From: Candidatus Omnitrophota bacterium
Lineage (GTDB): Bacteria > Omnitrophota > Gorgyraeia > Duberdicusellales > 4484-171
Direction of reading: 5' to 3'
NCBI GenBank assembly: GCA_041663385.1
Contig: JBAYMZ010000001.1
Location: 1 to 34,576, forward strand
Length of the DNA stretch: 34,576 nt
A program made the position numbers and the translations under genes. Below are positions 13,500-34,576 of this stretch, piece after piece (the first letter of the stretch is position 1; each line of letters begins with the position of its first letter). Below the pieces are notes generated by a model, which did no database searches, was not told the origin of the DNA, and was given only the letters and a program-made list of their open reading frames with translations.

Positions 13500-13503
13500 T
13501 TAA

Positions 13504-14697: not shown

Positions 14698-14720
14698 CGG
14701 GACAATACTCCCTTTATTTT

Positions 14721-18136: not shown

Positions 18137-19195
18137 TTAAAGGCTCAATCTACCGGTAAAACGGGAAAAAAACCTATCCAAGAAAGCAACAACCGGTTTA
18201 CCTAATCCACAAATAGCAGCCGGTAATAATATAGCATAAATACAGATTTTACAGAAATTACGCAAACTCTTCAAACCCTGGACTAAATATTTCAAAGAAA
18301 AACTTTTCAAGAGCAACTTAACCGCGGTTTTTCTGTCGCCAGCCTTTATCATGTTAGTTGCAATTTTAACATCATCCCAAAATTTATTATAGTCATATTG
18401 CGCTAATACGCCTGGGGTTATCGGTTTGCTCAACGCTGGGGAATCAAGAAAACAATCCAAAACTTGGATAACTTCTGATCTTGTAACCCGCGAACTTTCA
18501 TAAAGTGAGGAAGCTTGACGCGGATGAACTCTGCGCCGGATTAATCTTTCATTAATAACGCCTATTTTATATTTTTCGGCTATCTTCAAATATAAGAAAA
18601 TATCACTCGCTCCGCCCATCCAGTCGAGACACTCATCTAAATACTCCGTAGGATGCATATTTAAAAGAATTTTGCGGCGACCCATAAGCGTTGGGTACAC
18701 TAAAAAACTTCCTGATCGCTTAAGCATGTCCTGGTATAACTCCTCGAACGCATAAACGTTCTTCCCAGCTAATCCAGGGGGCAAATCAACTCCTTTAGAT
18801 ATTATTTCATCGTCTTCATTAATAATCCAATCCCCTGTTGAAACTACCGCTACATCCGAATTATGCAAAAGCATTTCTAATTCAGCAGCCACTATGCCGG
18901 GTTCATAAACATCATCGGCATGATAAACCGTCACGATATCAGAACTTGCCAACTCAAGGCAACGACGAAAATTTTGGTTACCTTCAATATTAGTAGCATT
19001 GCGATAATATTTTATCCGGGAATCGCCAAACGATTTAACCACGCTCTCAGTGTCATCCACTGAAGCATTGTCGCTGACTATAAGTTCAAAATTCGTATGA
19101 GTTTGTGCCAGCAAAGATTGAATCGTGCGGCCAATAAACCGGCCATAATTATATGTTTGAATGGTTAGGCTAACACGAACTCCGGATAAATCCAT
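18137..19195 (-). CDS. Family-2 glycosyltransferase with C-terminal membrane-associated extension
   Basis: SLTIQTYNYGRFIGRTIQSLLAQTHTNFELIVSDNASVDDT (GT-A N-terminus) and the YHADDVY DxD-like motif. Confidence 0.85.
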   Translation of the reverse strand: MDLSGVRVSLTIQTYNYGRFIGRTIQSLLAQTHTNFELIVSDNASVDDTESVVKSFGDSRIKYYRNATNIEGNQNFRRCLELASSDIVTVYHADDVYEPGIVAAELEMLLHNSDVAVVSTGDWIINEDDEIISKGVDLPPGLAGKNVYAFEELYQDMLKRSGSFLVYPTLMGRRKILLNMHPTEYLDECLDWMGGASDIFLYLKIAEKYKIGVINERLIRRRVHPRQASSLYESSRVTRSEVIQVLDCFLDSPALSKPITPGVLAQYDYNKFWDDVKIATNMIKAGDRKTAVKLLLKSFSLKYLVQGLKSLRNFCKICIYAILLPAAICGLGKPVVAFLDRFFSRFTGRLSL

Positions 19196-19197
19196 AG

Positions 19198-20106
19198 CTA
19201 GATTTTCTTAGTTGATTGATAAAAAAATAAATAATTTGTGTAACTCGTATCATCATCCACCAGGCCAAATTTTTCTATTTTTTCTCCGTTAATCACATAA
19301 CATTCATAACCGATATTCCTAAACATTTTAATAACGTCATTGGGGTGATACCCGAATTTTTTCGACCATTTCCTGAGCAGCTCGGAAAAAATTACAGGTT
19401 TATACTTTTTTATAGTCTCGAATCCGCCGTCAAAAACAAGTTTTTCCGCGCCCTCAACATCACATTTTATAAAATCTAACCTATCAACTCCCAGGGTAAA
19501 GAAAACATCATCTAATCTCTTTACCGAATGTTTAACCTTCACGGTGTTTCCACTATCGCGCAAATCAACCATTGATGAGGCACCGCAGCGCTCTTTGTCA
19601 AAGAAAAAGTCAACCTCTTCATTCACGTTTGCTAAACCAAAATTAAACGCGTTTTTAGTTTCCTGGCCGTTTAATGCTAAGTTTTTAATAAGCTTGTCAT
19701 ATATCTCCGGCATGGGCTCAAAAGAGAAAACTTTTATCTCTTTGAAATTTTTGAGCCAATTTAAGGTATACCAGCCTGAGTTGGCCCCAATATCAAGTAT
19801 TACATCCCCATCTCTGACCGTATTCAAAAGAACTTTTGTTTCTGCCTTTTCATACGAAGCAAAATCCAAAAAGGTAAACGGTACAGAAGTAACATCATAA
19901 GGAATACACACCATCTTAATCTGTGCATCGGCACTGCGAAAAGTGAAATAAACTTCGCCCTCTTTTATGGTTATATCCAAGATATCAGTGCCTTTAATAA
20001 AATCAGCATACTCATACAATATTTTATGGGCATCAAACATCTGTGCCATATACTGATACTTATCGAACTGATTACCTTTAAAAGCTTTCTGAATCTCTTT
20101 TAACAT
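19198..20106 (-). CDS. FkbM-family SAM-dependent methyltransferase
   Basis: DIGANSGWYT, FSFEPMP...Y..L..N and DFIKCDVEGAE motifs typical of the FkbM family. Confidence 0.85.
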   Translation of the reverse strand: MLKEIQKAFKGNQFDKYQYMAQMFDAHKILYEYADFIKGTDILDITIKEGEVYFTFRSADAQIKMVCIPYDVTSVPFTFLDFASYEKAETKVLLNTVRDGDVILDIGANSGWYTLNWLKNFKEIKVFSFEPMPEIYDKLIKNLALNGQETKNAFNFGLANVNEEVDFFFDKERCGASSMVDLRDSGNTVKVKHSVKRLDDVFFTLGVDRLDFIKCDVEGAEKLVFDGGFETIKKYKPVIFSELLRKWSKKFGYHPNDVIKMFRNIGYECYVINGEKIEKFGLVDDDTSYTNYLFFYQSTKKI

Positions 20107-21167
20107 TACACACCGCCACCTTTAAGAAAACTTTTAATAGTTCTTAAAAAACCATCTTTAACGCTGAAACGGCACCGATAGCCAATTTTCTCTATTTTTG
20201 CTGTTGACAATACCGGGCGTATTTTGTCCTTATTCTCAAGATAGAAACTGTTGTTGTCGCGGCTGGCGTAAACTACTTTTAATTTTTTTTCCGGGAACAA
20301 AGAAACAAGCAGATGTGCCAGTTTGCCTATCGCCATCTGCCCGTCTTTATTACCAACGTTATAACTTTCACCGGGATTGCCTTTCAATAAAACCCTGAAA
20401 AAACCTTCAGTAGCATCGCTGATATAGCAAAAAGTCCGACAGGCCAAACCGTCACTTTTTAAAACAATATCCTGGCCATTTACAATATTAGAAACAAATT
20501 CCGCAAACACTCTTTTGTCAATTTCTAAATCCATAGCCGGGCCATAGGTATGTTCCGGCCTTACCACAAATGTCGGTATTTTATACTGATAATGCCAACA
20601 CTTACACATATTCTCACCCATACGTTTACTCTCACCATAACAACTACGGACATCCATAGAATCCAGATAACCACTATCCTCCTCACTTATAATATTTTTA
20701 TTAACAGCTCCGCAAACTTCGCCGCTGCTAAAAAACAAAAAACCTTTTGATTTTTTTTCTCTGGCAAGTTCCAATAAGTTATAAGTGCCTAAAATGTTCG
20801 GGGTAATCACATTTATCGGATCGCTGCCATAGAATTGAGAACTGGCTGGGCTGGCGGCATGAATAATATAATCAATTTTTTCTTTAATTTTAAGCTTATC
20901 AACTACATCCGCGCAAATCACCTGGAATAAGGGGCTGTTTAAAAAATCGGCAAAGCGTTTTTTTGCTTTTTCAGGGTTACGGCAAAGCGCTAAAACTTTT
21001 ATATTTAATTCGGGACGGATATCATTCAAATGCATCAAAACAAACACCATATACAAGGGCAGCATCCCATAGGCTCCGGAAATCAAAACCGTACTGTCCT
21101 TAAATTTTTCCCAATCCAAACCACTCGTGCAAATGTTTTCTAAATCCTCTCTAATTATTTCATTCAT
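20106..21167 (-). CDS. Extended-SDR NAD-dependent sugar epimerase/dehydratase
   Basis: Rossmann N-terminus (VLISGAYGMLP), FSSGEVCG, and canonical YGESK (YxxxK). The ORF-track start 21173 is TTG. ATG 21167 is preferred. Confidence 0.85.
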   Translation of the reverse strand: MNEIIREDLENICTSGLDWEKFKDSTVLISGAYGMLPLYMVFVLMHLNDIRPELNIKVLALCRNPEKAKKRFADFLNSPLFQVICADVVDKLKIKEKIDYIIHAASPASSQFYGSDPINVITPNILGTYNLLELAREKKSKGFLFFSSGEVCGAVNKNIISEEDSGYLDSMDVRSCYGESKRMGENMCKCWHYQYKIPTFVVRPEHTYGPAMDLEIDKRVFAEFVSNIVNGQDIVLKSDGLACRTFCYISDATEGFFRVLLKGNPGESYNVGNKDGQMAIGKLAHLLVSLFPEKKLKVVYASRDNNSFYLENKDKIRPVLSTAKIEKIGYRCRFSVKDGFLRTIKSFLKGGGV

Positions 21168-21169
21168 AA

Positions 21170-22330
21170 TCAATATAATGTTATTATTTCGTTGGGCAGT
21201 TTTAGTTTTTCTTTAATCTGCCTGGCAACTTCATCCTGATAAGAATAAGTTGATATCAAAATTGGTATATCATCTTTTATGTCTTTCGGCAATCTTATTT
21301 CTACATTGTTTATTTTTTTACCACTATATCTGCTATTTGAATCCACAAAATACAATATTCTGGAAAGATCTAAACCGGAACCAATAAGCCTCTGGGTGTG
21401 TGTCCCCACGCCCCAAACTATTATCTTTTCTTTACCCTTAAGCTTCTCTTTTAGCTTTTCCTTAATTTCTAAATCCATTTTCCGGCATTTATCAATATAA
21501 TTTCTCAAGCACGGGCCGCAAGCCTCGTCCCTGACAATTGCAAAATCCTGCTCAATCGATTTAGATGATAAAATAAAAAGGTCAGGGTCTACTGTTTGAT
21601 TTACCCGGTTTTCATCTTTCAGCACTTTAACTATATTAAAAAAAGCGCTTGATAATAAATTTACGATTGAATACTGGGAAAAATAATTAATATGTTCAAT
21701 GCTGAATTGCTGAAAAGGGGTAAATATATAAGAATCAAAACGTTCCGCGTCAGGAATCTCAATAAACAACAAACCATTGTCTTTAAGCAGCGCTCGGATT
21801 TTATTCATGGCCGGCATGAAATCAACCAGATGTTCAAGAACTGCCGATAAAATAACCAAATCGAATGTTTCCTTGCTATAAAAATCTGAAATATTACCTG
21901 CTACAGCATCAACACCATATAATCTTTTTACAGAGGCTGCGCATGTTGACGACGGATCAAGCCCTAAAAGGTTTGAATATCCATGTTCCTTAAATAACGC
22001 CAATAGGCCGCCGGTGGAACAGCCAATATCCAATATTTTAGCGTTTTTATCGCTCATATAAGGGGACACAAACTTAACAATTTTTTCAAAATGCTCAGTA
22101 TAATTTTCAGAAACAATACCGTCATCATAATTAAATTCGTATTTGGACATGGCTGCATAATAGCCATTAAATTCTTTTTGCGATGGTATATTGTCGCTAT
22201 ATACAAACCCGCAGTTTGCGCAAAGAACAACATCGTAGCCATCCATTAAAGCAATGACTTTGTTGTTAAAATTCTGTCTGTATAACTGGGTTTTATTCGC
22301 ACAGGAACAAATAGGACAAAGTCTATTCAT
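21170..22330 (-). CDS. Class-I SAM methyltransferase with N-terminal Zn-ribbon and C-terminal Rossmann-like domain (TylCIII-type NDP-hexose C-methyltransferase architecture)
   Basis: CPIC...CANCGF Zn ribbon and SAM motif ILDIGCSTGG. The C-terminal IIVWGVGTHTQRL...YFVDSNSRYSGKKINNVEIRLP resembles the C-methyltransferase C-terminal domain (pattern recognition only). Confidence 0.7.
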   Translation of the reverse strand: MNRLCPICSCANKTQLYRQNFNNKVIALMDGYDVVLCANCGFVYSDNIPSQKEFNGYYAAMSKYEFNYDDGIVSENYTEHFEKIVKFVSPYMSDKNAKILDIGCSTGGLLALFKEHGYSNLLGLDPSSTCAASVKRLYGVDAVAGNISDFYSKETFDLVILSAVLEHLVDFMPAMNKIRALLKDNGLLFIEIPDAERFDSYIFTPFQQFSIEHINYFSQYSIVNLLSSAFFNIVKVLKDENRVNQTVDPDLFILSSKSIEQDFAIVRDEACGPCLRNYIDKCRKMDLEIKEKLKEKLKGKEKIIVWGVGTHTQRLIGSGLDLSRILYFVDSNSRYSGKKINNVEIRLPKDIKDDIPILISTYSYQDEVARQIKEKLKLPNEIITLY

Positions 22331-22347
22331 ATTTTAATTTTCCGGGT

Positions 22348-23361
22348 TTAATAAATTTTTTTAAGGCGCTCTACCGCGCCGTCGAGAACGTCTTCGGGAA
22401 ACAACCGATACTTAATAATATCGCATTTAGAACAGACTTTACCTGCAGCGTTAACCCCCTCAAGCATTAGGCGCCTGAATTTTCTAAAATGCTCGCTGTT
22501 CCAAATTTCGCATGCCGATTGATTATTACAGTCGCCAATAATCTCCGGATATTCAAACGAATAGCAGGGCACTACTTTTCCATCCGGGTTTATTTGCATG
22601 GTAAAAAAAGGTTGAGGGCATATTTTTACTTCTGAAACCGGTAATCCGAATTGAGTAACCGGCAAATCATTATTCTTTAATAATTTTCCATAATCTATGC
22701 CATGATGGATAGGCACCGTATGCTCAACAGACAAAGCATCACAAATATCTCCAAAAATATCATAAAAACGCTGCTCATCATTTTTATCTTCTAAAGCCGT
22801 ATCAACTATTTTAATATAAACCTGAGCTTTGCCTTTATTTTTAAAGAAGTATCTCAAATTTTCGATATATTTGTTAAAATCAATATCCACCCCGGAAACT
22901 TTCTTATATTTTTCTTTGGTTGTCCCCTGTACCGATACAACCAATCGCGAAAGGCCGTTCTTTATAAGATTTTTCGAAAGTTCTTTGGTTAAAAGCGAGG
23001 CATTGGTTAAAATCTCTAAAACATTAGCAACGTTTTTAGAGGCAGCATATTTAATCATCGCGGCAATATCTTTATGCAAAAGAGGTTCTCCTATGCCCAC
23101 GAAACGCAAAACTTTTATTTTATCAGGGAACGAAACCATATCGTCAATACATTTCTTATATAGATTAAAATTCATCATAGTGTCATCGGAAATAAAACCT
23201 CGTTTGGCCTTAGCGATAGAAAAAATACAATAGCAGCATTTAAAATTACAGGCATAAACCGGGAATATCTGCACAACAAAAGGAGTCGCCAGTGGCACAA
23301 CATCCGCCAAAAGAGTTCTTTTGCCTCCAGGAGCCTGCCCTCTGATATTTTTAGCCTTCAT
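22348..23361 (-). CDS. Radical SAM enzyme with Cys-rich C-terminal (SPASM/twitch-like) extension
   Basis: CNFKCCYC (CX3CX2C). C-terminal Cys residues in CPQPF...VVPCYSF...GDC...CEIW...CSKCD. ATG 23361 with GAGGT upstream is preferred over TTG 23367. Confidence 0.85.
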   Translation of the reverse strand: MKAKNIRGQAPGGKRTLLADVVPLATPFVVQIFPVYACNFKCCYCIFSIAKAKRGFISDDTMMNFNLYKKCIDDMVSFPDKIKVLRFVGIGEPLLHKDIAAMIKYAASKNVANVLEILTNASLLTKELSKNLIKNGLSRLVVSVQGTTKEKYKKVSGVDIDFNKYIENLRYFFKNKGKAQVYIKIVDTALEDKNDEQRFYDIFGDICDALSVEHTVPIHHGIDYGKLLKNNDLPVTQFGLPVSEVKICPQPFFTMQINPDGKVVPCYSFEYPEIIGDCNNQSACEIWNSEHFRKFRRLMLEGVNAAGKVCSKCDIIKYRLFPEDVLDGAVERLKKIY

Positions 23362-23375
23362 CGCCAACCTCTACG

Positions 23376-23870
23376 TTACATGTATTTACGATATAATTTA
23401 TGAAACTTTAGAATATTTTTGGGGCAATTGTCGTGCCATTTTAAATATCCTGGATCTTTTTCAGACAGCCCCTCATTCTTTGGTACAAACTTACCGGAGA
23501 CAAAACACTTATATAATATTGAAATAAAATGACTTCTTACTTTGAGTTCGGGATGAATAAGTTGAATTATTGCTAAGGGCACTTTTTCAAAACTGATACT
23601 AGTTCCTATTTCGGTTTTTGCGACCTTTTTGATTCTGGCTTCTATTGTTTCCTTAAACCTGACAATACCACCAGGAACATGCCAACCCTTGCCGCAATGC
23701 TCATCATCCCGCCAAGCCAAAAGAATACGCCCGCGTTCATCCTTGATTAAAAGATCCACATTTACCAAAGGTGTTGTTTTGCTAATGTAATAAAACAATT
23801 CTTGCGGCAACCCCAGCTCAGGCTTAGGGGCCTTTTTGCTGAGAACAGCTATAGCCTTTGTTATATTCAT
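23376..23870 (-). CDS. NUDIX hydrolase, GDP-mannose mannosyl hydrolase (Gmm/WcaH)-like
   Basis: Nudix box GGIVRFKETIEARIKKVAKTEIG preceded by GKGWHVPGG, which resembles the Gmm-type nucleotide-sugar hydrolase signature. Confidence 0.75.
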   Translation of the reverse strand: MNITKAIAVLSKKAPKPELGLPQELFYYISKTTPLVNVDLLIKDERGRILLAWRDDEHCGKGWHVPGGIVRFKETIEARIKKVAKTEIGTSISFEKVPLAIIQLIHPELKVRSHFISILYKCFVSGKFVPKNEGLSEKDPGYLKWHDNCPKNILKFHKLYRKYM

Positions 23871-23927
23871 ATAATCTCTATATCGTGAAAGAAGAAGTGT
23901 TGATTTGTTCTATCAATTATATTATGA

Positions 23928-25007
23928 CTATTTTACCTTATTAAACAGGATTTGAGTCTTGTCTTCATCATTAAAAACCTCGTCGCAGGGAACAGGCAAG
24001 GATTTTCCGTAAATCTTTTTAACCACATATTTGTCAATAAAATCACGGTCCTCGGCAATAAGGCAAGTGTCTACATGCCCCCCAAAATATTTGATATTCA
24101 GGCCCCGTTGAATTATATCTTTTAACGGCTCTTTAAAGACGTTGCCCAGCGACGTATGAATATACGGGCAAGGCAGGACATCGCCATATTGAGTTACGGA
24201 AAACATTCCTTTAACCGCGATACAACCCATATTTAGCCCATAAGCTGGCGTCAAATGAGTGAACACTTTATATTTTTTTTCAAGCGTTTCCATGTATTTC
24301 ATATCAGCTTTATTTACCAAAACATCAAAGTTGCCTTCCCAGGCACCAACGGGCTTAGCATAAGTCACAAACACACCTATACCTTTATTATTAAAGTACT
24401 CAACAAATTTAATGAACTCTTCACTATAAAGCCTTTGCTTAGTGACTACAGTTTGTATGAAAATAGCCAACCCGGCGCCTAAAACCGCATCAATCGCTTT
24501 GATGGCTCTTGCATGCGAACCTTTAGCCCCTCTAAAACTATCGTGCTCTTCGGGATTCAAACTATCGATACTTAATTGTATGCGGTCGATACCAATGCTT
24601 TTTAGATGCTTAGCTCGTCTTTCATCTAAAAGCCATCCGTTGCTATCACAGTTAATATAAAACTTTTGCGGATCGATAGACGCCACCAAAGCGTCTAAAT
24701 CTTTAAACACCAGCGGTTCTCCGCCGGTAATTGTTACCCGGGCCAGGCCAAGTTCATCTGCTTGACGGAAAAGATCCTTTACGTCAGCTATGGTAAATTG
24801 ACGCTTAGATTCTTTCCCCTGAAACCCTTTAACCGAACAATGCTGACATGCTAAATTGCAGGCATAATTATATTGAAATTGGATAATCGCGATGCTTTCC
24901 CCGCGTTTAAACTTTTCTTCAAATTTTAAGATTTTCGTGTAAACATACGGCTTCTCATTTTTTAATTTATTACGGTTATCTGTTTCTTGTGGTTTTAATT
25001 GTCCCAT
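23928..25007 (-). CDS. Radical SAM enzyme (MoaA/PqqE-like core with C-terminal Cys motif)
   Basis: CNLACQHC (CX3CX2C), GGEPL glycine motif, and C-terminal GDVLPCPY...C..ED Cys residues. Confidence 0.85.
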   Translation of the reverse strand: MGQLKPQETDNRNKLKNEKPYVYTKILKFEEKFKRGESIAIIQFQYNYACNLACQHCSVKGFQGKESKRQFTIADVKDLFRQADELGLARVTITGGEPLVFKDLDALVASIDPQKFYINCDSNGWLLDERRAKHLKSIGIDRIQLSIDSLNPEEHDSFRGAKGSHARAIKAIDAVLGAGLAIFIQTVVTKQRLYSEEFIKFVEYFNNKGIGVFVTYAKPVGAWEGNFDVLVNKADMKYMETLEKKYKVFTHLTPAYGLNMGCIAVKGMFSVTQYGDVLPCPYIHTSLGNVFKEPLKDIIQRGLNIKYFGGHVDTCLIAEDRDFIDKYVVKKIYGKSLPVPCDEVFNDEDKTQILFNKVK

Positions 25008-25008
25008 A

Positions 25009-27394: not shown

Positions 27395-27409
27395 AAGCAA
27401 TTTTCTAAT

Positions 27410-28915
27410 TTAGTCCAACCAGTCAGTTAATAAAGTTTTACGATTTTTGTTTTCGCTTATTTTAGGATCAGTATAATAGGAATCATCCTTATAATGCGTT
27501 GAAGAAATCTCTTCAATTACAGTTCCGCCTTTAGTGCTAAAGCTATGCCTTACGCCTCTCTCTACAACAACCACATCTCCCGGATGACAAACCTTATCCT
27601 TGCCGTCAAGCTTGATCTCTATGTCGCCGTATAAAACGTTGAATGTCTCTTCTTTTTCTTTGTGGTATTGCTCCGGATGGGCTTGCCCAGGCATCAGAAC
27701 AATAATTTTTTTACAGTACTCACGATTTATGCAATTTATAATAACTCCGCCGTAACGTTCAAAATCATCAATCCCGTAATGATAAGATATTTCCAGCCCC
27801 AGCTGGTTAGGCACAACCACACCACTTTTCCTTATAATTTCTTTAGCCTGCGAAACAATTTTATATACCTTTTCCCGTAATTCTACAATTTTTACGTCCT
27901 TAAAAAATACAGCCTGTTTATTGCCAATGTTAATTTTAGCATAAAATTCAGTATATTTGGAAACCTCACTGGCAGATATCTGCCCATCAGCAATAGGTAT
28001 AGCGAAAAACAATTTTGCCGGATCTATTTTATCTCCTGCCTTAATCGACTCGGAAACAAACGCACCTCTCTTTAATGCCCGTAAATCATTTAACTCTTTC
28101 TCGCTAAATTTATACCGTTCACCGTAAAGTCCGCAAAATGTTAAAGCTTCCTGCGCGGCCGATAACCAACCAAAAATCTCTTGCGGCATTGCCGAATAAG
28201 CATTCAAACTATCCGGGCCATCTTTAACCCCAACATGCTTTTCAAATATAGTTGCTCCTTTAGAAATTGCCAGTTTTACAGACTCAACGCTGCTACCTGT
28301 CTCATGGTTAGAATAACCAATTTCCATACCGGGATAACGCCGCTTAAGAAAATCTATTTGATTAAGTTGTAGATTTTCTTTTAAGGTGGGGTATTCTGAA
28401 ACGCAATGCAGAAGCGAAAGTTTCTTATCACGATGCAGAAAAAAACTTACAACCCTGTCGATGTCATCAACAGTAGCCCCGGCCACTGAAGCAATAATCG
28501 GTTTATCAGTTTTGACTATCCGCTCAAGCAAAGGCCAATCCGTAAAAGAACAACTTCCAAGTTTGATTATATCCCAATCCTGTTTTTCAATAAGCCCCAC
28601 GGATTGCTCATCAAAAGGCGTGCAAATTGAAACAAAGCCGCATTTATCTATCTCTTCCTTGAGGCGTAAAAATTCTTCTTCTTTCAGCCTGGTCTGGGAA
28701 AACCGCTTTATGTGCTTATACTCATGCCTGCCTTTAAAATCAGGATGGATAAAAGTGTCTAAATCGCGGTATTGAAGTTTGAATGCAAAATTGAAAGGAA
28801 ATTTTTTACTTACCTCGTATATTTCCCTTACAATCCTTAATCCGTGTTCTAATTTTCCCATATGATTATTGGCCATCTCAAAAATAAATAACGGCCGCAA
28901 ACTAATATTACTCAT
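27410..28915 (-). CDS. NeuB-family ulosonic (sialic-acid-type) acid synthase fused to SAF domain and a C-terminal cupin (D-lyxose/D-mannose isomerase-like) domain
   Basis: NeuB signatures IFEMANNHMG, GYSNHETG and EKHVG. SAF-like KRGAFVSESIKAGDKI. Extra ~130-aa C-terminus MPGQAHPEQYHKEKEE...GD..V...G..HSF...EEISSTHYKDDSYYTD. Length is 501 aa versus ~340 for typical NeuB. Confidence 0.8.
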   Translation of the reverse strand: MSNISLRPLFIFEMANNHMGKLEHGLRIVREIYEVSKKFPFNFAFKLQYRDLDTFIHPDFKGRHEYKHIKRFSQTRLKEEEFLRLKEEIDKCGFVSICTPFDEQSVGLIEKQDWDIIKLGSCSFTDWPLLERIVKTDKPIIASVAGATVDDIDRVVSFFLHRDKKLSLLHCVSEYPTLKENLQLNQIDFLKRRYPGMEIGYSNHETGSSVESVKLAISKGATIFEKHVGVKDGPDSLNAYSAMPQEIFGWLSAAQEALTFCGLYGERYKFSEKELNDLRALKRGAFVSESIKAGDKIDPAKLFFAIPIADGQISASEVSKYTEFYAKINIGNKQAVFFKDVKIVELREKVYKIVSQAKEIIRKSGVVVPNQLGLEISYHYGIDDFERYGGVIINCINREYCKKIIVLMPGQAHPEQYHKEKEETFNVLYGDIEIKLDGKDKVCHPGDVVVVERGVRHSFSTKGGTVIEEISSTHYKDDSYYTDPKISENKNRKTLLTDWLD

Positions 28916-30045
28916 TTCTTACCCCCAATAGTTGAATAAACCTTGCAATTCTTGCAAACTTGAGGAAACCGGTTAGATTTAAGAGTGGATAAAAAGCTTT
29001 TAAATTCTTTTGAACGCCAAAAATTACGAAAATCCCCTTCTAAAAGATTCATAAAAGCATTATTCTTCTGAAATTCCCTGTCATTAGCTTCATTTAACAC
29101 ACAGCAGGGTTGAATATGGCCGCTGGATAAAATAAACGGTTCGCTCCATTTTGTGCACATAGAAGGGCATTGTTTACGGCTTATATTTTCGTTCCAATTA
29201 ACAAAAATTCCCTTTTTGTGAGCTGCCTCCTCTATTTTATTTTTTAATTCCTCAGAAACATTATCAACTCGCAAATCTTTTGTCTCTTTAAAATCCATCA
29301 GGCCGGTATAAAAAATTAAGGAAGCTGCTTGAGGTACATCCTTCATCAGCTCAGCTACAAAATCCACATAAGCAAGCATTTCCGGATAATTATATTTGTT
29401 GATGATAAAATGAAACCAAACCTCCGGCAGCAAGGCTTTTTTGCGCTTTTTTATTTCAAAAAAGGTTTTTATGTTAGCAATAACTTTTTCAAAATTTGCC
29501 CCAACTCTTATTTTCTCGTAAGTCTCTTTTGTTGTAGCTTCGATAGATAACCATATCCTGTCGATATTTAAATCAATTATTCTTTCAGCAATCTTATCAT
29601 CCACAAGCGTAAAAGTATCATAAAATTCAACATACATGCCTTTTGACTTAGCATATTCCAGCATTTTCATATAATCTGGATTCAAAAAAGATGAGCCTAT
29701 GCCGGTAAGGCCTAACCACTTAAGCCGCGGAAATTGATCAACTATCTGCCTGAATTGAGCATAGCTGAGATCCCTGACAGGCTCCTTCCAAAAAGTATGT
29801 TCACAAATCACGCAACGCAAATGACAGCGAGTAGTTGGTTCTATCTCAATGGCTTCAGGATAGGGCGTAAGCGCGGGAAACCTTCTCCATAAAGGATCAA
29901 ATAGCGCGATTCCTGAATCTCGGGTTACTATCGCGCTCCATAAATAACAATAAGCGTTTCGAAACTTACCTCTAGCTAAAAGGTATAAAGTATTTCTTAA
30001 GCGTGAGCCAACCATCCCTAAAAATTTTAAACGACGCGCATCCAT
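28912..30045 (-). CDS. Radical SAM enzyme with Cys-rich C-terminal (SPASM-like) extension
   Basis: CHLRCVIC (CX3CX2C). C-terminal CPSMCTKW...GHIQPCCVL...CKNCKVY. There is a 4-nt ATGA overlap with the downstream NeuB-like gene. Confidence 0.85.
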   Translation of the reverse strand: MDARRLKFLGMVGSRLRNTLYLLARGKFRNAYCYLWSAIVTRDSGIALFDPLWRRFPALTPYPEAIEIEPTTRCHLRCVICEHTFWKEPVRDLSYAQFRQIVDQFPRLKWLGLTGIGSSFLNPDYMKMLEYAKSKGMYVEFYDTFTLVDDKIAERIIDLNIDRIWLSIEATTKETYEKIRVGANFEKVIANIKTFFEIKKRKKALLPEVWFHFIINKYNYPEMLAYVDFVAELMKDVPQAASLIFYTGLMDFKETKDLRVDNVSEELKNKIEEAAHKKGIFVNWNENISRKQCPSMCTKWSEPFILSSGHIQPCCVLNEANDREFQKNNAFMNLLEGDFRNFWRSKEFKSFLSTLKSNRFPQVCKNCKVYSTIGGKK

Positions 30046-30057
30046 ATTATTTACTGG

Positions 30058-30786
30058 TTATAAATGTTCAAAATAGCTTCTTGTTTTATCTAATTCATCT
30101 TTATAGTTAACGTTTATGTAATCCGAACAGATCACAAATGGCTTAACCACCTTTCCATCATCAATCGCGCACTGAATAAGATCGGGTAATTCTTTTTGCA
30201 TCCTCTGCTGATTTATCGGAGTATGTTTTATGTAATCTAAGATCGCATTTTTAAATATACAGTTTCCTGTACCCATAAAATCGTTTATCGGGTTTCGAGG
30301 CTTTTCTACCAACCGCCAGATACGAGCATCGTTATCCGTAAATATCGTGTAGGTTTTTTTGATAAGGTTTCTATCTGTTACTTTCAATACTCCGCAAAGC
30401 GCAAACACCTTACTGCTTATAAATTCCTGAATAAATTCTTTATGCCTGGCGTTAATCATAACCTCATCGCCAAGCATTAACATGAAATCGTCTTTGCCCA
30501 ATGCATCTTTAGCGCATTCTATGGCATGCACAAGCCCAAGTTGTTCTTCCTGTTTAATATAAATAACAGGCTTGCCTTGATACGACTCTCCAAAACGCTT
30601 GATGATATCCTCTGCTTTATAACCCACAAGCAGGATTATTTTGTCTATCTCTTTTAGATTAGCAGCTGCATTAAGGCTGTATTCAATTAAAGGCTTTCCA
30701 GAAACCTCTAAGAAGCATTTATTGACTACTTCTGTAACGCTGCCGATTCTTTTACCTCGGCCGCCGGCTAAAATCAAAGCCTTCAT
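30058..30786 (-). CDS. Sugar-1-phosphate nucleotidyltransferase (RmlA/GlmU-type NTP_transferase fold)
   Basis: MKALILAGGRGKRI (GxGxR signature) and a GDEV motif. ATG 30786 with GGAG upstream is preferred over TTG 30801. Not a CMP-ulosonate synthetase type. Confidence 0.85.
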   Translation of the reverse strand: MKALILAGGRGKRIGSVTEVVNKCFLEVSGKPLIEYSLNAAANLKEIDKIILLVGYKAEDIIKRFGESYQGKPVIYIKQEEQLGLVHAIECAKDALGKDDFMLMLGDEVMINARHKEFIQEFISSKVFALCGVLKVTDRNLIKKTYTIFTDNDARIWRLVEKPRNPINDFMGTGNCIFKNAILDYIKHTPINQQRMQKELPDLIQCAIDDGKVVKPFVICSDYINVNYKDELDKTRSYFEHL

Positions 30787-30790
30787 TGTT

Positions 30791-31822
30791 TTAATCTCCA
30801 AATAAATCAGGATTAGTTTTAATCCAATTAATTAAATTTTCTACTCCTTGGCGCGGCTGGACTTTTGGCAACCAGCCTAAAGCATTAAACGCTTTTTGGC
30901 TGTTACAGGCAAAATACAACAAATCACCAAACCTGCCGGGACAAAATTCTATTTCAGGTTTCTTGCCTAAAATATCAGCAATCATACTTATACATTCCAA
31001 TAAAGAAATCATGGTAAGTTTTCCACCGCCGATATTATAAATACCGGGAATTTGCTTTTCATAGAACGCGTTAAAAGCCGCCACCAAATCAGAGGCATAA
31101 AGTATATCACGAACCTGTTTACCTGTTCCATAAACCCGCAAAGGCATATTTTTAATCGCCCGGATAGCAAAGTTAGCAACCCAGCCATGATCCTCTCCGC
31201 CAAGCTGACGCGGTCCGTATAAGCCGGTTAAACGAAAACTTGCAGCTTTAACTTTGTAAGTATCGGCATACACTTTGACATAAAAATCAGCCGCGGCTTT
31301 TGAGGCATGCAAGGGCGTTAAAGTTCCACCCAATACCGGGTAATTTTCATCAATTAATTCTTCCTTACGTAAATAACGGGTATCTGCTTGTGTCAACTCC
31401 TCATTAAGTTTATTACCGTAAATATGTATCGTGGCACAGCTGACCACAGGGATTTTGAATTTGCGGGCAGCTTCCAGCACATTTATTGTCCCCATAACAT
31501 TGGTAGTAAAATCCAGTTCCGGATCTTCTTCGCTAATCGTCATAGCCGGTTGAGCCGCAGTATGAATAATAAAATCACATTCCTTAGCATACTCAAATAA
31601 AGCTTCCCGGTTACGAACATCCTCTTTAATCAGTTCCACTCCTAATGCTTTTAAATAATTCCAGTTATAGCCTCTGGCTGAATCTGTATTATAGCCGGTA
31701 CGCATTAATTCGTGCTTAGTCATGTTGTCATATGAAATAACTTTGACTCCAAGCTTAGCATAATATTCGCAGCACCATGAACCAATAAAACCGCAACCAC
31801 CGGTAACAAGAATTTTTTTCAT
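30791..31822 (-). CDS. Extended-SDR, CDP-paratose/tyvelose 2-epimerase-like, with non-canonical active-site segment
   Basis: GGCGFIGS, AAQPAMT, GEDHGWVANF and GTGKQVRDILYASDL resemble the RfbE family. The expected YxxxK position reads LHASK. Confidence 0.8.
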   Translation of the reverse strand: MKKILVTGGCGFIGSWCCEYYAKLGVKVISYDNMTKHELMRTGYNTDSARGYNWNYLKALGVELIKEDVRNREALFEYAKECDFIIHTAAQPAMTISEEDPELDFTTNVMGTINVLEAARKFKIPVVSCATIHIYGNKLNEELTQADTRYLRKEELIDENYPVLGGTLTPLHASKAAADFYVKVYADTYKVKAASFRLTGLYGPRQLGGEDHGWVANFAIRAIKNMPLRVYGTGKQVRDILYASDLVAAFNAFYEKQIPGIYNIGGGKLTMISLLECISMIADILGKKPEIEFCPGRFGDLLYFACNSQKAFNALGWLPKVQPRQGVENLINWIKTNPDLFGD

Positions 31823-32985
31823 TATTTACCCTCTTTCGTTGCTTGTTGAAAAATATCAATATACTGACGGCTAAATTTATCCCAAGTTAAATTTTCTTTC
31901 ACCCAAACTGAAGCCTTTGAAGCTTGCTCTTTATATTTTTGGTACGAATTATGGATATTGATTAAAGCGGAAGCTAAATCTTGCGTTACAGTGCCTAAAT
32001 TATTATCCTGAACTAACGTTGCCGCGCCCATCTGTGGATAAACCACAACCGGAACAGCACAGGATAACGCCTCAAATACCGATAGATAACCGCCTTGTAA
32101 TTTTACTGGAAACACACACAAATTACAAGCCGAATACAAATCATAAACATCTTCCTTATTAAGCATGCCGGTAAAAATCACCTTTCCAGGCAGAGAAAGT
32201 TCAGAAACTTCTTTTTTAAGGCTCGCGGCATAAGCTCCGCTATCATTGCCGGCTAAAATTAATTTTGCCGAAGGAATTTTATCTGTAATTTTAGAAAATG
32301 CCTGGATTGTATCTTCCTGATTTTTAGCCGGAGAAATCACCCCTACTTGCAAGAGCACAAAAGAATCATCGCTTAAACCATATTTGCTTAACACCTCTTT
32401 TTTTGAAGCCTTTCCAAAATCAGCAGGCGGCTTATCTATGCCGTAAGGAGTTAAAATCGCAGTTTTACCGTAACGCTGTTTAACCGTTTCTGCGTTAAAC
32501 CGATCAGCCGCGCATATTACATCTACGCTGGAGTTAATTATTGTTTTATCAAGTTTTACTCCAAACCAACGTACAAGCTTAAGAGGCAGGGAAAGTTTTT
32601 TGTTATTATAAAAATCAGGAATCTCATTGCACAGCCAGACTGTTGGTTTATCGATTCCAAGCCCAACCCAACTTGCAGGAAAATTATGCAAGTTGATAAC
32701 ATCAAAATCTTTACAATATCGCTTAATTAATTTTCGTAAGTAATATATCTCTTTAAATATGCCAAGCGACGACAAAAAAGAACGGCTGCGGAATTCATAT
32801 TTAAATTTAGTTTCCGGGGTAACTATATTTATCCCCTTACATTTATCCGCTACCTCCTTAGAAAGATTAAGCGTAAGTACAGTATTCTCCACTCCCAAAC
32901 GGGTAAGGTTTAATGACAACTCTTTTACTACCTGTTCTGCCCCGCCATAAAGCCCCATAAATCGATTAACAATTAAAACTTTCAT
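31822..32985 (-). CDS. GT4-family (GT-B fold) glycosyltransferase
   Basis: N-terminal MKVLIVNRFMGLYGGAEQVV and C-terminal GGYLSVFEALSCAVPVVV (E..E-type motif). Confidence 0.85.
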   Translation of the reverse strand: MKVLIVNRFMGLYGGAEQVVKELSLNLTRLGVENTVLTLNLSKEVADKCKGINIVTPETKFKYEFRSRSFLSSLGIFKEIYYLRKLIKRYCKDFDVINLHNFPASWVGLGIDKPTVWLCNEIPDFYNNKKLSLPLKLVRWFGVKLDKTIINSSVDVICAADRFNAETVKQRYGKTAILTPYGIDKPPADFGKASKKEVLSKYGLSDDSFVLLQVGVISPAKNQEDTIQAFSKITDKIPSAKLILAGNDSGAYAASLKKEVSELSLPGKVIFTGMLNKEDVYDLYSACNLCVFPVKLQGGYLSVFEALSCAVPVVVYPQMGAATLVQDNNLGTVTQDLASALINIHNSYQKYKEQASKASVWVKENLTWDKFSRQYIDIFQQATKEGK

Positions 32986-33938
32986 TTTTTTAAATGTTTT
33001 GCTCCGGCTAATTCCAAATCACATATTTCAGCACAGGGAGAATGGCAAATTGTGTCGCCTTGACGCAGCTTAAAACTTCCATCAAATAAATTACCCATTC
33101 TAAAAATATCCCGGCTGTCAGCTCTGCCCTGATAAGGCAAACATTCAGAATAATAATAGCCCTCCATGCAGCTATAAACATTTCCGTTAGATATCATTAT
33201 AAAAAAACCGCTGCCGGCTTTACATTTCTTAGGAGAAAAATCATTAAAATTGTATCCTCTTGTCCGGTTGGGCGCGATAAAACCTTTCTTTTTGTATTCT
33301 TCAATTAAACTAAGCTCTTTCTGGCTATATTCATATCCGGGTTCTTTATAGGTATCAACTTTAAAAGCTGCCAAGCCTTCTTTTTCAAAATATCGCTTTA
33401 ACTCAGGAATTAAAGCGATCTGTTTAGGGTGCGCCACAAAATTTACCGTAATATTTTTAAAACCATGCGCATGAATTTCTTTCAATCGAGATAAAAGCTC
33501 TTCTTTAGTAGCCATTGAAGGATGGAAGCTGGCCATTATCCGAAAATTTTTATTTCTCACGGCATAAAGACGGTTTAAATTTACGCTTAAATTCGTAACC
33601 ATTGATGAAATAACATGTTTTGAAGGAAAATTATCAATTAATTCGGTAATATCTTTATACAAAAGAGGTTCTCCTCCGGTGATAGTAAAAACTGAAGGTG
33701 GAAAATTTTCAAAAACCTTAACCCAGTCCTGCCATGAACGATACGATGATTTTAAATTGTCCGGAGTAAAACGATTCCAAATACAATAAGGACAATTATA
33801 GTTACACCCCAAAAATGGTAAAAAAATTACATTCCTGACTCCAGGGAATAGCTTTCGATAATAAGGCAGCAGGGCTTGCCGCAACCTTTCAGGAAGAAAT
33901 GAATTAACTTTTTTTAAAATAGAAATAAAAAGATTCAT
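32982..33938 (-). CDS. Radical SAM enzyme
   Basis: CNYNCPYC (CX3CX2C), TGGEPLL, and C-terminal Cys residues (CKAG...SCMEGYYYSEC...CHSPCAEIC). Confidence 0.85.
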   Translation of the reverse strand: MNLFISILKKVNSFLPERLRQALLPYYRKLFPGVRNVIFLPFLGCNYNCPYCIWNRFTPDNLKSSYRSWQDWVKVFENFPPSVFTITGGEPLLYKDITELIDNFPSKHVISSMVTNLSVNLNRLYAVRNKNFRIMASFHPSMATKEELLSRLKEIHAHGFKNITVNFVAHPKQIALIPELKRYFEKEGLAAFKVDTYKEPGYEYSQKELSLIEEYKKKGFIAPNRTRGYNFNDFSPKKCKAGSGFFIMISNGNVYSCMEGYYYSECLPYQGRADSRDIFRMGNLFDGSFKLRQGDTICHSPCAEICDLELAGAKHLKK

Positions 33939-33953
33939 TATGCACCAAAAAAA

Positions 33954-34576
33954 TCATCGACAACCAAGATTATACCCCAGAAAATTCCATGCTCCGCGAA
34001 GTTTTCGGTAAAGATCTGAAAGAGAGTGTGTATCCAGAAGAAACTTCAGCATAAAGCCGGGACGAAAATAAAATTTTTTAAGCCCCAAATCCACATAATG
34101 GTTGATTTTTTCCTGGCTAATCCCAGGGTATTCAACAATACCTTTTTGCTCACCGGCTGAAAGCCAGCATCGCCAGTCTTTAGTTTTAAGCCAAGCTTCT
34201 TTTTCCGCCATCTCAAAAAATTTAGTTCCGGGAAACGGCACAGCTCCTGAAAATTGCAAGGTATCGCAATTAAGCGACATGGCAAACTCTACAGTTTTTT
34301 TAGCTGTACTTTCAGTTTCCCCGGGTAAACCAACAACAAAACATCCATGAACCTTAAAACCATGCTTATGAGCAGACTCGAGGAACAAACGGGAATCTTC
34401 GAGCCTGATATTTTTGTGGCTCTTATCAAGAATTTCCTGGCTGCCGGATTCAAAACCCGCTAAAAGCTCCCGGCACCCGGCTTGCCGCATTATTTTAAAC
34501 ATTTTTTCATCGAGGCTGTCGACTCTGGCATTAACGGAAAAAGTTATTTTTAAGTTGCGCCGCAAAATCTCTTCAC
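33954..34576 (-). CDS. Class-B (B12-binding-domain type) radical SAM enzyme, C-terminal part only (5-prime end beyond window)
   Basis: GFESGSQEILDKSHKNI, FVVGLPGET and QFSGAVPFPGT are typical of the radical-SAM core C-terminal half of B12-rSAM proteins. The frame stays open to the window edge, and the track start at 34565 is an internal TTG. Confidence 0.75.
   Translation of the reverse strand, partial: EEILRRNLKITFSVNARVDSLDEKMFKIMRQAGCRELLAGFESGSQEILDKSHKNIRLEDSRLFLESAHKHGFKVHGCFVVGLPGETESTAKKTVEFAMSLNCDTLQFSGAVPFPGTKFFEMAEKEAWLKTKDWRCWLSAGEQKGIVEYPGISQEKINHYVDLGLKKFYFRPGFMLKFLLDTHSLSDLYRKLRGAWNFLGYNLGCR

Follow-up and report, generated by a model that had tools for sequence, protein, structure and literature searches.

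The stretch of DNA analysed here, called the window below, was 34,576 bp long and was the complete contig of one metagenome-assembled genome (MAG) of Candidatus Omnitrophota, as found by exact look-up of its NCBI proteins (MFA62808xx). Every open reading frame (ORF) of the window was carried on the minus strand, and sixteen of them were packed into a block of glycan genes that included five radical S-adenosylmethionine (rSAM) enzymes. With moderate confidence, we regard this 16-kb block as a cell-surface glycan operon, as the initial annotation had held, in which two independently conserved modules were joined head to tail, namely a cassette (28915 to 18137) and a module D (34576 to 28912), both on the minus strand. 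The cassette most likely makes a 4-C-acyl-branched deoxyhexose by a YerE-type route.

Organization of the glycan operon

The sixteen successive minus-strand ORFs extended from 18137 to 34576, and the final one was truncated at the contig end. The junctions of the block ranged from -17 nt (26801/26817) to +57 nt (23870/23928), in agreement with the layout described in the initial annotation, and 4-nt overlaps of the ATGA type were located at 21170/21173, 28912/28915 and 32982/32985. The overlap at 28912/28915, where the stop of rSAM3 meets the start of the gene for a NeuB-cupin fusion, was read directly and is the boundary between the two modules.

Pfam families were judged by the gathering score and NCBIfam families by the curated equivalog cut-offs. 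Radical_SAM (PF04055) scored above the gathering score in all five ORFs for which a radical-SAM function had been claimed, the CX3CX2C motif was found at residues 40, 50, 74 and 45 of the four complete proteins, and three SPASM matches together with additional C-terminal cysteines agreed with the claim of extra C-terminal clusters in at least three of them. The Pfam matches also bore out the assignments of a family 2 glycosyltransferase (GT2), an FkbM methyltransferase, two short-chain dehydrogenases/reductases (SDRs), a class I methyltransferase, a Nudix hydrolase, a three-domain thiamine diphosphate (ThDP) enzyme, a NeuB+Cupin_2 fusion, a nucleotidyltransferase (NTP_transferase), a family 4 glycosyltransferase (GT4) and a Wzx-like flippase (16595-17743). 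Among the 17 glycan proteins, none passed an NCBIfam equivalog cut-off, except for the FkbM subfamily domain; the rSAMs matched dozens of NCBIfam models, with no more than a quarter of the respective cut-off. Scans of the window detected no aminotransferase, acetyltransferase, CMP-synthetase, Wzy or initiating transferase, so that the absences listed in the initial annotation were upheld, but a 56-aa stub of RfbH was present at 17811-17981.

Core of the cassette

The homologous loci were collected by a one-genome-per-species scan with the NeuB-cupin protein, which returned 244 relatives, and 80 loci from about 20 phyla were taken; 85 loci were compared in all, and gene counts were taken from tblastn matrices and from clusters built de novo out of all their ORFs. 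The NeuB-cupin gene (27410..28915, minus strand) encoded a 501-aa NeuB-family synthase (NeuB, 137 bits) with a C-terminal, D-lyxose-isomerase-like cupin domain (Cupin_2, 44 bits). Enzymes of the NeuB family form a 4-hydroxy-2-oxo (3-deoxy-2-ulosonic) acid by condensation of an aldose and phosphoenolpyruvate (PEP). In the PDB, the protein matched 3G8R (E 1e-108), and its cupin domain matched the D-lyxose ketol-isomerase 2Y0O (E 1.6e-6), which suggested a ketose-to-aldose step feeding the NeuB domain. The NeuB domain scored under the equivalog cut-offs of both NeuB (TIGR03569, 126 vs 399.65) and PseI (TIGR03586, 120.5 vs 340.25). Thousands of homologues were found, of which the best 120 were full-length, 56-62% identical and derived from Patescibacteria, Omnitrophota, Planctomycetota, Endomicrobiales, Nanoarchaeota and Altiarchaeota, and the orthologues in the 85 loci were likewise full-length with 51-62% identity. 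A tblastn search of the plasmid collection with NeuB-cupin returned only PseI/NeuB genes of about 30% identity and no orthologue.

The next gene (26801..27400, minus strand) encoded a 199-aa HAD-type (NT5C-like) phosphatase candidate, recognized by residue motifs only. Its motif I read WDVDDVLN, and D9-x-D11-D12, K138, D149 and D154 were invariant in 29 orthologues. Thus the HAD residue pattern of the phosphatase proposed in the initial annotation was present, but no Pfam or NCBIfam match was obtained for the protein. It occurred in 52 of the 85 loci, usually directly after NeuB-cupin. In Mycolicibacterium rhodesiae (locus L079) and Geobacter sp. SVR (L150), its slot was occupied by unrelated HAD_2/phosphoglycolate-phosphatase-like proteins, and this non-orthologous replacement by other HAD types suggested that a phosphatase step is integral to the cassette.

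The third core gene (25009..26817, minus strand; TPP_enzyme_N/M/C) encoded a YerE/JanthE-like ThDP-dependent carboligase, which matched JanthE (8RPH) with E 8e-125 over residues 5-595 and PpYerE (5AHK) with E 2e-82. It was below all equivalog cut-offs of acetohydroxyacid synthase (AHAS), with 400 vs 538 for the biosynthetic enzyme (TIGR00118). Its ThDP motif was a non-canonical SDG, in which the Ser of INSDGG aligned with the Cys of the JanthE CDG. The gene was found in 67 loci, and NeuB-cupin was its tightest partner, often with overlapping reading frames.

Distribution of the cassette and its RfbF/RfbG/RfbH front end

The carriers of the cassette included archaea (Methanoperedens, Nanoarchaeota), members of the candidate phyla radiation (CPR) and DPANN, Geobacter sp. 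SVR and M. rhodesiae DSM 44223, and the cassette is a widespread, horizontally distributed gene set. Over the 85 loci, all of which carried NeuB-cupin (85), the genes found besides those of the ThDP enzyme (67) and the HAD-like protein (52) were RfbH (a DegT protein of about 440 aa; 63 loci), nucleotidyltransferase/RfbF (53), rSAM2 (37), Nudix (37), two SDR dehydratase types (29 and 25; RfbG-type genes in about 54 loci), rSAM1 (21), the Zn-ribbon methyltransferase (19), SDR_a (12) and a 550-aa rSAM of the cobalamin (B12)-binding type (B12-rSAM; 11). The commonest local order was RfbH, NeuB-cupin and the 199-aa HAD-like protein. The DegT proteins were identified as RfbH, the CDP-4-keto-6-deoxyglucose 3-dehydrase (E1), by 730-761 bits on NF011936, the cut-off of which is 423.

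In the complete genome of the cultured Geobacter sp. SVR, the locus (AP024469.1:4,560,336-4,581,421, at about 4.56-4.58 Mb) passed the NCBIfam equivalog cut-offs for RfbF (393 over 300), RfbG (485 over 278) and RfbH (730 over 423). Its gene order was RfbF, RfbG, RfbH, NeuB-cupin, ThDP enzyme, HAD protein, rSAM2, B12-rSAM, Nudix, rSAM1, Zn-ribbon methyltransferase, GT2, GT2, epimerase and B12-rSAM. A second Omnitrophota MAG (L151) had the same content with four rSAMs, and these two loci indicated that several rSAM genes are normal for the cassette and not a peculiarity of the window. The M. rhodesiae locus (NZ_MVIH01000015.1:58,003-79,478), with the order SDR, DegT, nucleotidyltransferase, GT2, NeuB-cupin, ThDP enzyme, HAD protein, methyltransferase, FkbM, SDR and GT87, was free of rSAM genes. 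As a qualitative trend, rSAM2, Nudix and rSAM1 were absent in typically aerobic lineages, namely Mycolicibacterium, Acidobacteriota (Solibacter/Bryobacterales) and Steroidobacteraceae (L027, L062, L074, L076, L079, L080, L082 and L084), and their carriers were mostly anaerobes, CPR and DPANN.

We also weighed a nonulosonic acid or another ulosonic acid, in modified form, as the end product of the cassette. NeuB would then perform the last C-C step, the Nudix enzyme would free the sugar, the HAD protein would serve as the phosphatase of a 9-phosphate, and tailoring of the precursor or of the acid would fall to the ThDP enzyme and the rSAMs. HAD phosphatases are the partners of Neu5Ac-9-P and KDN-9-P synthases, and known NeuB pathways free the aldose from a nucleotide sugar, for which a Nudix enzyme of the sugar-releasing GDP-mannose hydrolase type would be fitting. 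The score of the NeuB domain and its 120-126 bits on the NeuB/PseI models pointed the same way, as did a gene of the YhcH/N-acetylneuraminate-anomerase family in L003 and two CTP_transf_3 genes with aminotransferases in L005. However, these scores were far under both equivalog cut-offs, the core was devoid of NeuC/LegG/PseG, aminotransferase and acetyltransferase, and its closest partners, the YerE-like carboligase and RfbF/RfbG/RfbH, are known to work together on branched 3,6-dideoxyhexoses, and no such joint role is known for nonulosonate pathways. The window had no CMP-ulosonate synthetase either, and a search with the two L005 genes showed linked CMP-synthetase homologues in no more than 2 of 82 related loci, which suggested that the NeuB product is probably not the end product. 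A nonulosonate as final product of the NeuB fusion is therefore considered unlikely.

Radical SAM and tailoring genes of the cassette

Downstream of the carboligase gene, the cassette continued with a sub-module of rSAM2, Nudix and rSAM1. The rSAM2 gene (23928..25007, minus strand; Radical_SAM 87 bits, SPASM 26 bits) encoded a protein with one auxiliary-cluster Cys set; C50/54/57 and C262/280/315 were invariant. Its best 120 homologues were 75-83% identical across phyla and archaea and spanned Nanoarchaeota, Patescibacteria, Geobacter, Smithella, Nitrospirota, Chloroflexota and Kiritimatiellota. The Nudix hydrolase (23376..23870, minus strand; NUDIX 28 bits) was of the GDP-mannose mannosyl hydrolase type, with 44 bits on NF011963 and E values of about 1e-9 to 2I8T and 1RYA; GDP-mannose mannosyl hydrolase frees the sugar from a nucleotide sugar. 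The rSAM1 gene (22348..23367, minus strand; Radical_SAM 55 bits, SPASM 55 bits) encoded a twitch-like radical-SAM/SPASM protein, which matched BtrN (4M7S/4M7T) with E 3e-13; the match fell into two stretches, one of which aligned residues 251-320 with BtrN 170-240, and a BtrN-type activity of rSAM1 is a prediction only. BlsE and DesII were the next-best solved relatives. In the Nanoarchaeota MAG GCA_043814905.1 (L004), the rSAM1 orthologue at 3919-4935 was called as two ORFs, one of 150 aa with Radical_SAM and one of 184 aa with SPASM.

The co-occurrence with rSAM2 was 27/37 for Nudix, 18/21 for rSAM1, 10/11 for the 550-aa B12-rSAM and 13/17 for a 318-aa SDR-like family. The 550-aa B12-rSAMs of the relatives resembled C- and P-methylases, with scores well below the family cut-offs. 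At the edge of the L004 glycan locus (19217-21530), a LAGLIDADG/NUMOD3 homing-endonuclease gene abutted a B12-rSAM gene.

Four further genes completed the cassette, all on the minus strand. A class I SAM methyltransferase (21170..22330; Methyltransf_23 77 bits) had an N-terminal Cys-rich, Zn-ribbon-like segment; its orthologues carried PF22674 (C2185-like_N) and were 56-65% identical in L004, L005, L050, L065, L077 and L150. A 379-aa Zn-ribbon methyltransferase, sugar-C-methyltransferase-like, was carried instead by many loci (28), with or without rSAM2. The extended SDR named SDR_a (20106..21173; Epimerase 128 bits) is a candidate YerF-like side-chain ketoreductase with a Rossmann fold and its YxxxK motif as YGESK at residue 179; it had orthologues of 49-71% identity in cassette loci and was co-conserved in 12 loci, including that of M. 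rhodesiae, where the SDR was 39% identical. The FkbM-family methyltransferase (19198..20106; Methyltransf_21 65 bits) passed the TIGR01444 cut-off of 37.7 with 86 bits and was 65% identical to the L005 protein and 34% identical to that of M. rhodesiae. The last gene of the cassette encoded a GT2 glycosyltransferase (18137..19195; Glycos_transf_2 79 bits). The order rSAM2, (B12-rSAM), Nudix, rSAM1, Zn-ribbon methyltransferase, SDR_a, FkbM and GT2 was common to the window and to one MAG each of Endomicrobiales and Nanoarchaeota.

As predicted in the initial annotation, the rSAM genes were partnered by sugar genes and not by peptide precursors. The rSAM2, Nudix and rSAM1 genes travelled with NeuB-cupin and the ThDP gene in 18-37 of the 85 loci. 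In module D, rSAM3, the HpnJ-like B12-rSAM, GT4, SDR and nucleotidyltransferase were syntenic in other Omnitrophota, and relatives of rSAM4 were located in ThDP/NeuB or Wzy loci. This conservation bears on the possibility that the SPASM/twitch rSAMs are maturases of ribosomally synthesized and post-translationally modified peptides (RiPPs) or of metallocofactors which merely stand among sugar genes. The best NCBIfam matches did include a tungsten-cofactor maturase, GeoRSP, AhbD, MoaA and peptide maturases, and the fold matches included SkfB and SuiB. All of the NCBIfam matches were far under their cut-offs, and the closest solved relatives of rSAM1, BtrN, BlsE and DesII, are carbohydrate enzymes. 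Every rSAM was co-conserved with sugar genes across phyla, with sugar enzymes as the conserved neighbours, and the junctions of at most 57 nt left no room for a precursor gene in the window, although a small-ORF screen of the relatives was not part of this search. A maturase role is thus very improbable.

Module D of Omnitrophota

Module D, an Omnitrophota-specific unit, started at the contig end with the C-terminal 206 aa of an HpnJ-like class-B (B12-binding) rSAM (33954..34576, minus strand; Radical_SAM 45 bits). The partial protein scored 168.7 bits on NCBIfam HpnJ (TIGR03471, model positions 271-466). Its full-length orthologues in two other Omnitrophota MAGs (L153:297-1733 and L152:1891-3321; 65-72% identical, 476-478 aa) carried both B12-binding (PF02310) and Radical_SAM domains, so that the class-B/B12-like call made on the 169-bit HpnJ match of the partial ORF was confirmed. 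These orthologues reached 372-375 bits on HpnJ, below the cut-off of 577.6, and the next family was BchE with about 170. The neighbours of the HpnJ-like genes were glycosyltransferases, an SDR and a nucleotidyltransferase, and no hpn genes were found nearby.

The following gene encoded rSAM4 (32982..33938, minus strand; Radical_SAM 43 bits), a member of a rare, distantly STM4011-like rSAM family (NF038073, 66 bits, cut-off 200) with CX3CX2C at residue 45 and C-terminal Cys 298/302/306. No PDB sequence match was obtained for it, and a metagenome scan returned relatives of at most 39% identity, none of which extended the window. Relatives of rSAM4 stood in glycan loci, in L087 with two rSAM3-like genes and Wzy_C proteins, and in L088-L090 after RfbF, RfbG, RfbH, SDR, methyltransferase, ThDP enzyme, NeuB(SAF) and GT2. 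Next came a GT4 glycosyltransferase (31822..32985, minus strand; Glycos_transf_1 87 bits, Glyco_transf_4 45 bits) and the extended SDR named SDR_b (30791..31822, minus strand; Epimerase 145 bits), which was CDP-tyvelose-2-epimerase-like but had no catalytic Tyr. It matched 9RL0 (E 5e-49) and 1ORR (E 6e-46) in the PDB; the Tyr of YxxxK was replaced by Leu171 (TPLHASK) and TDE by TIH, both invariant in the orthologues L152:8219-9244 and L153:4258-5289. The NAD-binding GxxGxxG was kept, and the gene adjoined the nucleotidyltransferase and rSAM3 genes in all three Omnitrophota. A 4,6-dehydratase was the top NCBIfam match of SDR_b, and this assignment was dropped since neither the catalytic Tyr nor TDE was present in the alignment with the PDB matches.

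The remaining genes were those of an AglF/RmlA-long-like sugar-1-phosphate nucleotidyltransferase (30058..30801, minus strand; NTP_transferase 95 bits) and rSAM3 (28912..30045, minus strand; Radical_SAM 49 bits, SPASM 32 bits). The nucleotidyltransferase was not RfbF: it scored 147 bits on AglF (cut-off 400) and was only 21-31% identical to the RfbF-type genes of cassette loci. The rSAM3 family was small, with 249 matches, mostly from Omnitrophota/Elusimicrobiota.

In L152 and L153, the order HpnJ-like B12-rSAM, GT2, GT4, SDR, nucleotidyltransferase and rSAM3 was present with no NeuB/ThDP cassette. The identities to the window were 65-72% for B12-rSAM, 46-54% for GT4, 67-70% for SDR_b, 59-64% for the nucleotidyltransferase and 62-68% for rSAM3, and the position of GT2 in these two MAGs was taken by rSAM4 in the window. 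In one of the two, pilMNOQ stood next to module D. Downstream of module D in L152 (GCA_040754255.1, 11706-21131), an rSAM beside a Memo/AMMECR1 fusion, a MiaB-like enzyme and an HxsD protein near rSAM/SPASM genes were observed, which suggests that rSAM genes are unusually dense in this Omnitrophota lineage.

The initial annotation had treated the block as one integrated operon for a heavily tailored sugar, with radical chemistry that replaces or extends the pyridoxal phosphate (PLP)/NAD steps. In a single pathway of this kind, all sixteen genes would work on one sugar, and the five rSAMs would stand in for steps such as 3-deoxygenation, 4,6-dehydration and epimerisation. The co-directional genes, the narrow junctions and the ATGA overlap exactly at the module boundary are in line with this idea. 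So is the window itself, which had no intact RfbF/RfbG/RfbH and an SDR_b devoid of its catalytic Tyr, since radical enzymes could do the redox and deoxygenation steps; for deoxygenation and oxidation of sugars by rSAMs there are precedents in the AprD4 and BtrN types, though the family matches were weak. On the other hand, module D stood alone in L152 and L153, and about 85 loci had the cassette but not module D, as a rule with RfbF/RfbG/RfbH intact beside the rSAMs. These arrangements implied that the rSAMs are not general replacements and that the two halves have separate histories, so that a single pathway has a low probability and two joined modules are favoured. A role of the rSAMs in extending classical enzymes fits better than one in replacing them, as the PLP/PMP (pyridoxamine phosphate) enzyme RfbH coexists with rSAMs in the relatives.

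RfbH remnant and flanking region

The RfbH pseudogene stub (17811..17981, minus strand; 56 aa) was situated in the 394-nt gap between GT2 and Wzx. By tblastn of the L004 RfbH against the window, only residues 1-47 of 444 were matched (51% identity) with no other match, the rest of the gene being deleted, and the stub matched the N-termini of the DegT genes of about 440 aa in 20 loci. No RfbF or RfbG orthologue was found in the window. The acceptor may be encoded elsewhere or be supplied by module D or by an rSAM, or the cassette may be impaired.

These losses raised the question of whether the copy in the window is a decaying, non-functional remnant inserted beside module D, for which the number of five rSAMs would be physiologically meaningless. 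The reduction of RfbH to 47 homologous codons, the lack of an RfbF/RfbG orthologue and the 394-nt non-coding gap would fit such decay. However, all genes from NeuB-cupin to GT2 were intact, full-length and 46-83% identical to their orthologues, with catalytic Cys and motifs conserved, and the tight coupling of the genes was kept. RfbF, RfbG and RfbH could also sit elsewhere in this incomplete MAG, or module D could supply the acceptor. We therefore regard decay as improbable to a considerable degree.

The final gene of the glycan block was the Wzx-like flippase (16595..17743, minus strand; Polysacc_synt 67 bits). Beyond it, 317-16383 carried the housekeeping genes rho, coaE, glgA, polA, a TPR protein gene, secG, tpiA, pgk, gap, two genes for GalT-like HIT proteins, tyrS and rpsA; the order following them was Wzx, the 394-nt gap and the sixteen packed genes from 18137 to the contig end. 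The best sigma-70-like site of the region (16561-16589, minus strand; 11/12, TTGACA-17-GATAAT) was located just past the Wzx stop and upstream of rpsA, and probably marks the end of the glycan transcription unit. Promoter and terminator scans gave counts equal to those in shuffled sequence, and consequently no internal operon boundary could be called. The two GalT-like HIT-family proteins (GalP_UDP_transf/DUF4921; 11255-12256 and 12354-13361, minus strand), which lay between gap and tyrS, were tandem paralogues. The 832-aa product of polA (3810-6308, minus strand) had strong 5'-3' exonuclease and polymerase domains and a sub-threshold 3'-5' exonuclease-like domain (21 bits vs a cut-off of 27).

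The tetranucleotide profiles of the housekeeping region, the cassette and module D correlated at 0.94-0.955, vs 0.964 for a within-housekeeping control, and a chimeric assembly or a recent foreign origin was thus unsupported. The uniform composition indicated that the join of cassette and module D, seen in this one contig, is old or well ameliorated. Extension of the contig by exact protein look-up yielded only two contigs of about 1.8 kb with the same rSAM4 junctions, and as the window is the entire contig, nothing past 34576 is recoverable from it.

Proposed pathway

YerE-like enzymes act by decarboxylation of an alpha-keto acid and transfer of the resulting acyl anion to CDP-4-keto-3,6-dideoxyglucose, which leads to C-branched sugars of lipopolysaccharide or lipooligosaccharide (PMC9306805, PMC12247030). 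In the case of yersiniose the donor is pyruvate, and erwiniose, caryophyllose and gastriose are made from longer 4-hydroxy-2-oxo acids (PMC9306805, PMC12247030). JanthE/YerE-like enzymes couple alpha-keto acids of C3-C8, including 4-hydroxy-2-oxo acids, to ketones or to CDP-4-keto-3,6-dideoxyglucose (PMC9306805, PMC12247030, PMC12188165). The published clusters hold a keto-acid aldolase, a YerF-like reductase, methyltransferases, a glycosyltransferase and CDP-sugar genes (PMC9306805, PMC12247030); they are those of yersiniose (YerE/YerF), erwiniose (ErwE/F/I/J), caryophyllose (MMAR_2331-2333) and gastriose (MyGE/MygI/MygF) (Steitz et al. 2022, PMC9306805; PMC12247030). While the initial annotation could not map the block to any described pathway, the core of the cassette together with the RfbF/RfbG/RfbH of the relatives corresponded to this scheme for acyl-branched sugars, with the ThDP enzyme as a JanthE homologue.

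Accordingly to this scheme, and with the family assignments, synteny, co-conservation and pseudogene described above as its basis, we propose the following substrates, order of steps and rSAM reactions. An aldose, produced from a sugar or sugar phosphate by isomerisation in the cupin domain, would be joined with PEP by the NeuB domain to form the 3-deoxy-2-ulosonic acid, and the HAD-type enzyme would remove a phosphate. From their adjacency and family chemistry, we infer that NeuB-cupin and the phosphatase make the donor for the ThDP enzyme. Speculatively, if the aldose used by NeuB were a pentose (phosphate), a C8 donor acid and a C7 branch would result; the highly hydroxylated branch of gastriose has been reported as C7 (PMC9306805). 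The ThDP enzyme would then decarboxylate this alpha-keto acid, and it would attach the resulting acyl anion at the keto group of an NDP-4-keto-(3,)6-deoxyhexose, giving a tertiary alcohol with a long polyhydroxylated branch. SDR_a would reduce the branch ketone in a YerF-like manner, the two SAM methyltransferases would methylate the product, GT2 would transfer the sugar and Wzx would flip the lipid-linked unit. The sub-module of rSAM2, Nudix and rSAM1, with the 550-aa B12-rSAM in the relatives, might either tailor the branched sugar by oxidation, epimerisation, deoxygenation or C-methylation, or supply the NeuB step with a free, modified aldose that it prepares and releases from a nucleotide sugar. 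Module D would build and transfer a second, rSAM-modified nucleotide sugar with its nucleotidyltransferase, SDR_b, rSAM3, rSAM4, HpnJ-like B12-rSAM and GT4, and it may supply the acceptor because RfbF and RfbG are absent from the cassette and RfbH is a stub.

Several observations weigh against this proposal. The published source of the donor is a set of pyruvate aldolases and not a NeuB-type synthase. The profile of the 199-aa family matched mainly HAD hydrolases in the PDB, but weakly, with a best E of 0.08. With the RfbH stub, no RfbF or RfbG, and an SDR_b devoid of dehydratase residues, the window offered no recognisable route to a keto-sugar acceptor. About half of the cassette loci carried no rSAM at all, which made the rSAMs accessory to the core chemistry. 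PDB and fold searches with rSAM2 gave generic matches only (MoaA, SkfB, SuiB, BlsE; TM at most 0.61, model pLDDT 66), and the AF2 model of rSAM3 (pLDDT 90.4) had SkfB, SuiB, viperin and DesII as its best folds, again generic with TM at most 0.61, so that the roles given to the rSAMs remain guesses. The cassette was characterised by sequence alone, and the physiological substrates of JanthE itself are unreported (PMC12188165).

A bolder reading, which we hold as a tentative possibility as a whole, is that rSAM2 (about 80% identical between Nanoarchaeota and Geobacter), rSAM1 and the B12-rSAMs perform unprecedented carbohydrate radical chemistry on the branched sugar built by NeuB and the ThDP enzyme, giving a new class of surface monosaccharide, and that in Omnitrophota module D, with its HpnJ-like B12-rSAM, Tyr-less SDR and rSAM3, makes a second, independent and possibly carbocyclic sugar by radical tailoring. 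The candidate reactions would be skeletal rearrangement or ring contraction, C-C bond formation, and deoxygenation of the long branch. For HpnJ, a ring contraction of hopanoid glucosamine to a cyclitol has been proposed (PMC9204698).

Discussion

The 4-C-acyl-branched deoxyhexose proposed for the cassette places it close to the YerE-type clusters. As in those clusters, the ThDP carboligase adjoined a potential maker of a hydroxylated alpha-keto acid, an NAD(P)H-type SDR, one or more methyltransferases and a glycosyltransferase; in the relatives only, RfbF/RfbG/RfbH for a 4-keto-3,6-dideoxyhexose acceptor were directly adjacent, and the Mycolicibacterium locus L079 had the same layout. The cassette differed in that the PEP-dependent NeuB-cupin synthase and a HAD phosphatase took the slot of the pyruvate aldolase, that up to four rSAM enzymes and a Nudix hydrolase were conserved parts of it, that its hosts were mostly uncultured anaerobes, CPR and DPANN, and that in the window the CDP-sugar genes were absent or degraded. 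Judged from gene content, the cassettes of the relatives thus appear to contain what the YerE scheme calls for except for the type of keto-acid enzyme, and the copy in the window appears to lack the acceptor pathway. The broad logic of the pathway is probably already known, and the donor route through NeuB-cupin and the conserved rSAM/Nudix tailoring are uncharacterised. Our literature search found no paper linking YerE-like enzymes with NeuB-type synthases or with rSAM enzymes, but its coverage was incomplete and a prior mention is possible.

JanthE of Janthinobacterium sp. HH01 (PDB 8RPH/8RPI/8RPJ) has been described as a "YerE-like" ThDP enzyme with an unusual CDG motif, for which physiological substrates and gene context were unreported (PMC12188165). 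The window enzyme shared with it a non-glycine first residue of the ThDP motif, Ser in place of Cys. Unlike JanthE, which is known only as a biocatalyst, the window enzyme had a conserved genomic context that suggests both donor and acceptor. Compared with the nonulosonate pathways (NeuB/LegI/PseI), the cassette shared a NeuB-family synthase, a candidate nucleotide-sugar hydrolase and a candidate phosphatase as in the 9-phosphate routes, but its synthase formed a fusion with a cupin and was paired with a ThDP carboligase, and its core had no CMP-synthetase, aminotransferase or acetyltransferase. Among the radical enzymes, rSAM1 resembled BtrN in that the match covered the C-terminal cluster domain. 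In contrast to BtrN, DesII, BlsE, AprD4, GenK/Fom3 and HpnJ, the rSAMs of the block scored well under the family cut-offs and stood in a surface-glycan context, not in that of an aminoglycoside, a nucleoside antibiotic or a hopanoid.

The context of the cassette suggests a physiological job for JanthE-type carboligases, with the NeuB product as donor and a CDP-4-keto-3,6-dideoxyhexose as acceptor. If this is true, the acyl-branched-sugar scheme would no longer be confined to mycobacteria and a few pathogens but would cover hundreds of species from about 20 phyla of both prokaryotic domains, with PEP-dependent synthesis of the branch. Several sugar-linked rSAM families without known reactions were flagged by this work, among which rSAM2 was exceptionally conserved. 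Intact versions of the cassette occur in the cultured Geobacter sp. SVR and M. rhodesiae DSM 44223, which makes it accessible to genetics and to glycan chemistry. That CPR, DPANN and Omnitrophota retain such costly, Fe-S-rich glycan genes in spite of their reduced genomes hints that the surface function is an important one. If the reading of unprecedented radical chemistry were true, horizontal transfer would have spread a surface sugar through anaerobic bacteria, CPR, DPANN and Omnitrophota, and this sugar would possibly be important for the cell-cell contacts of ultra-small organisms.

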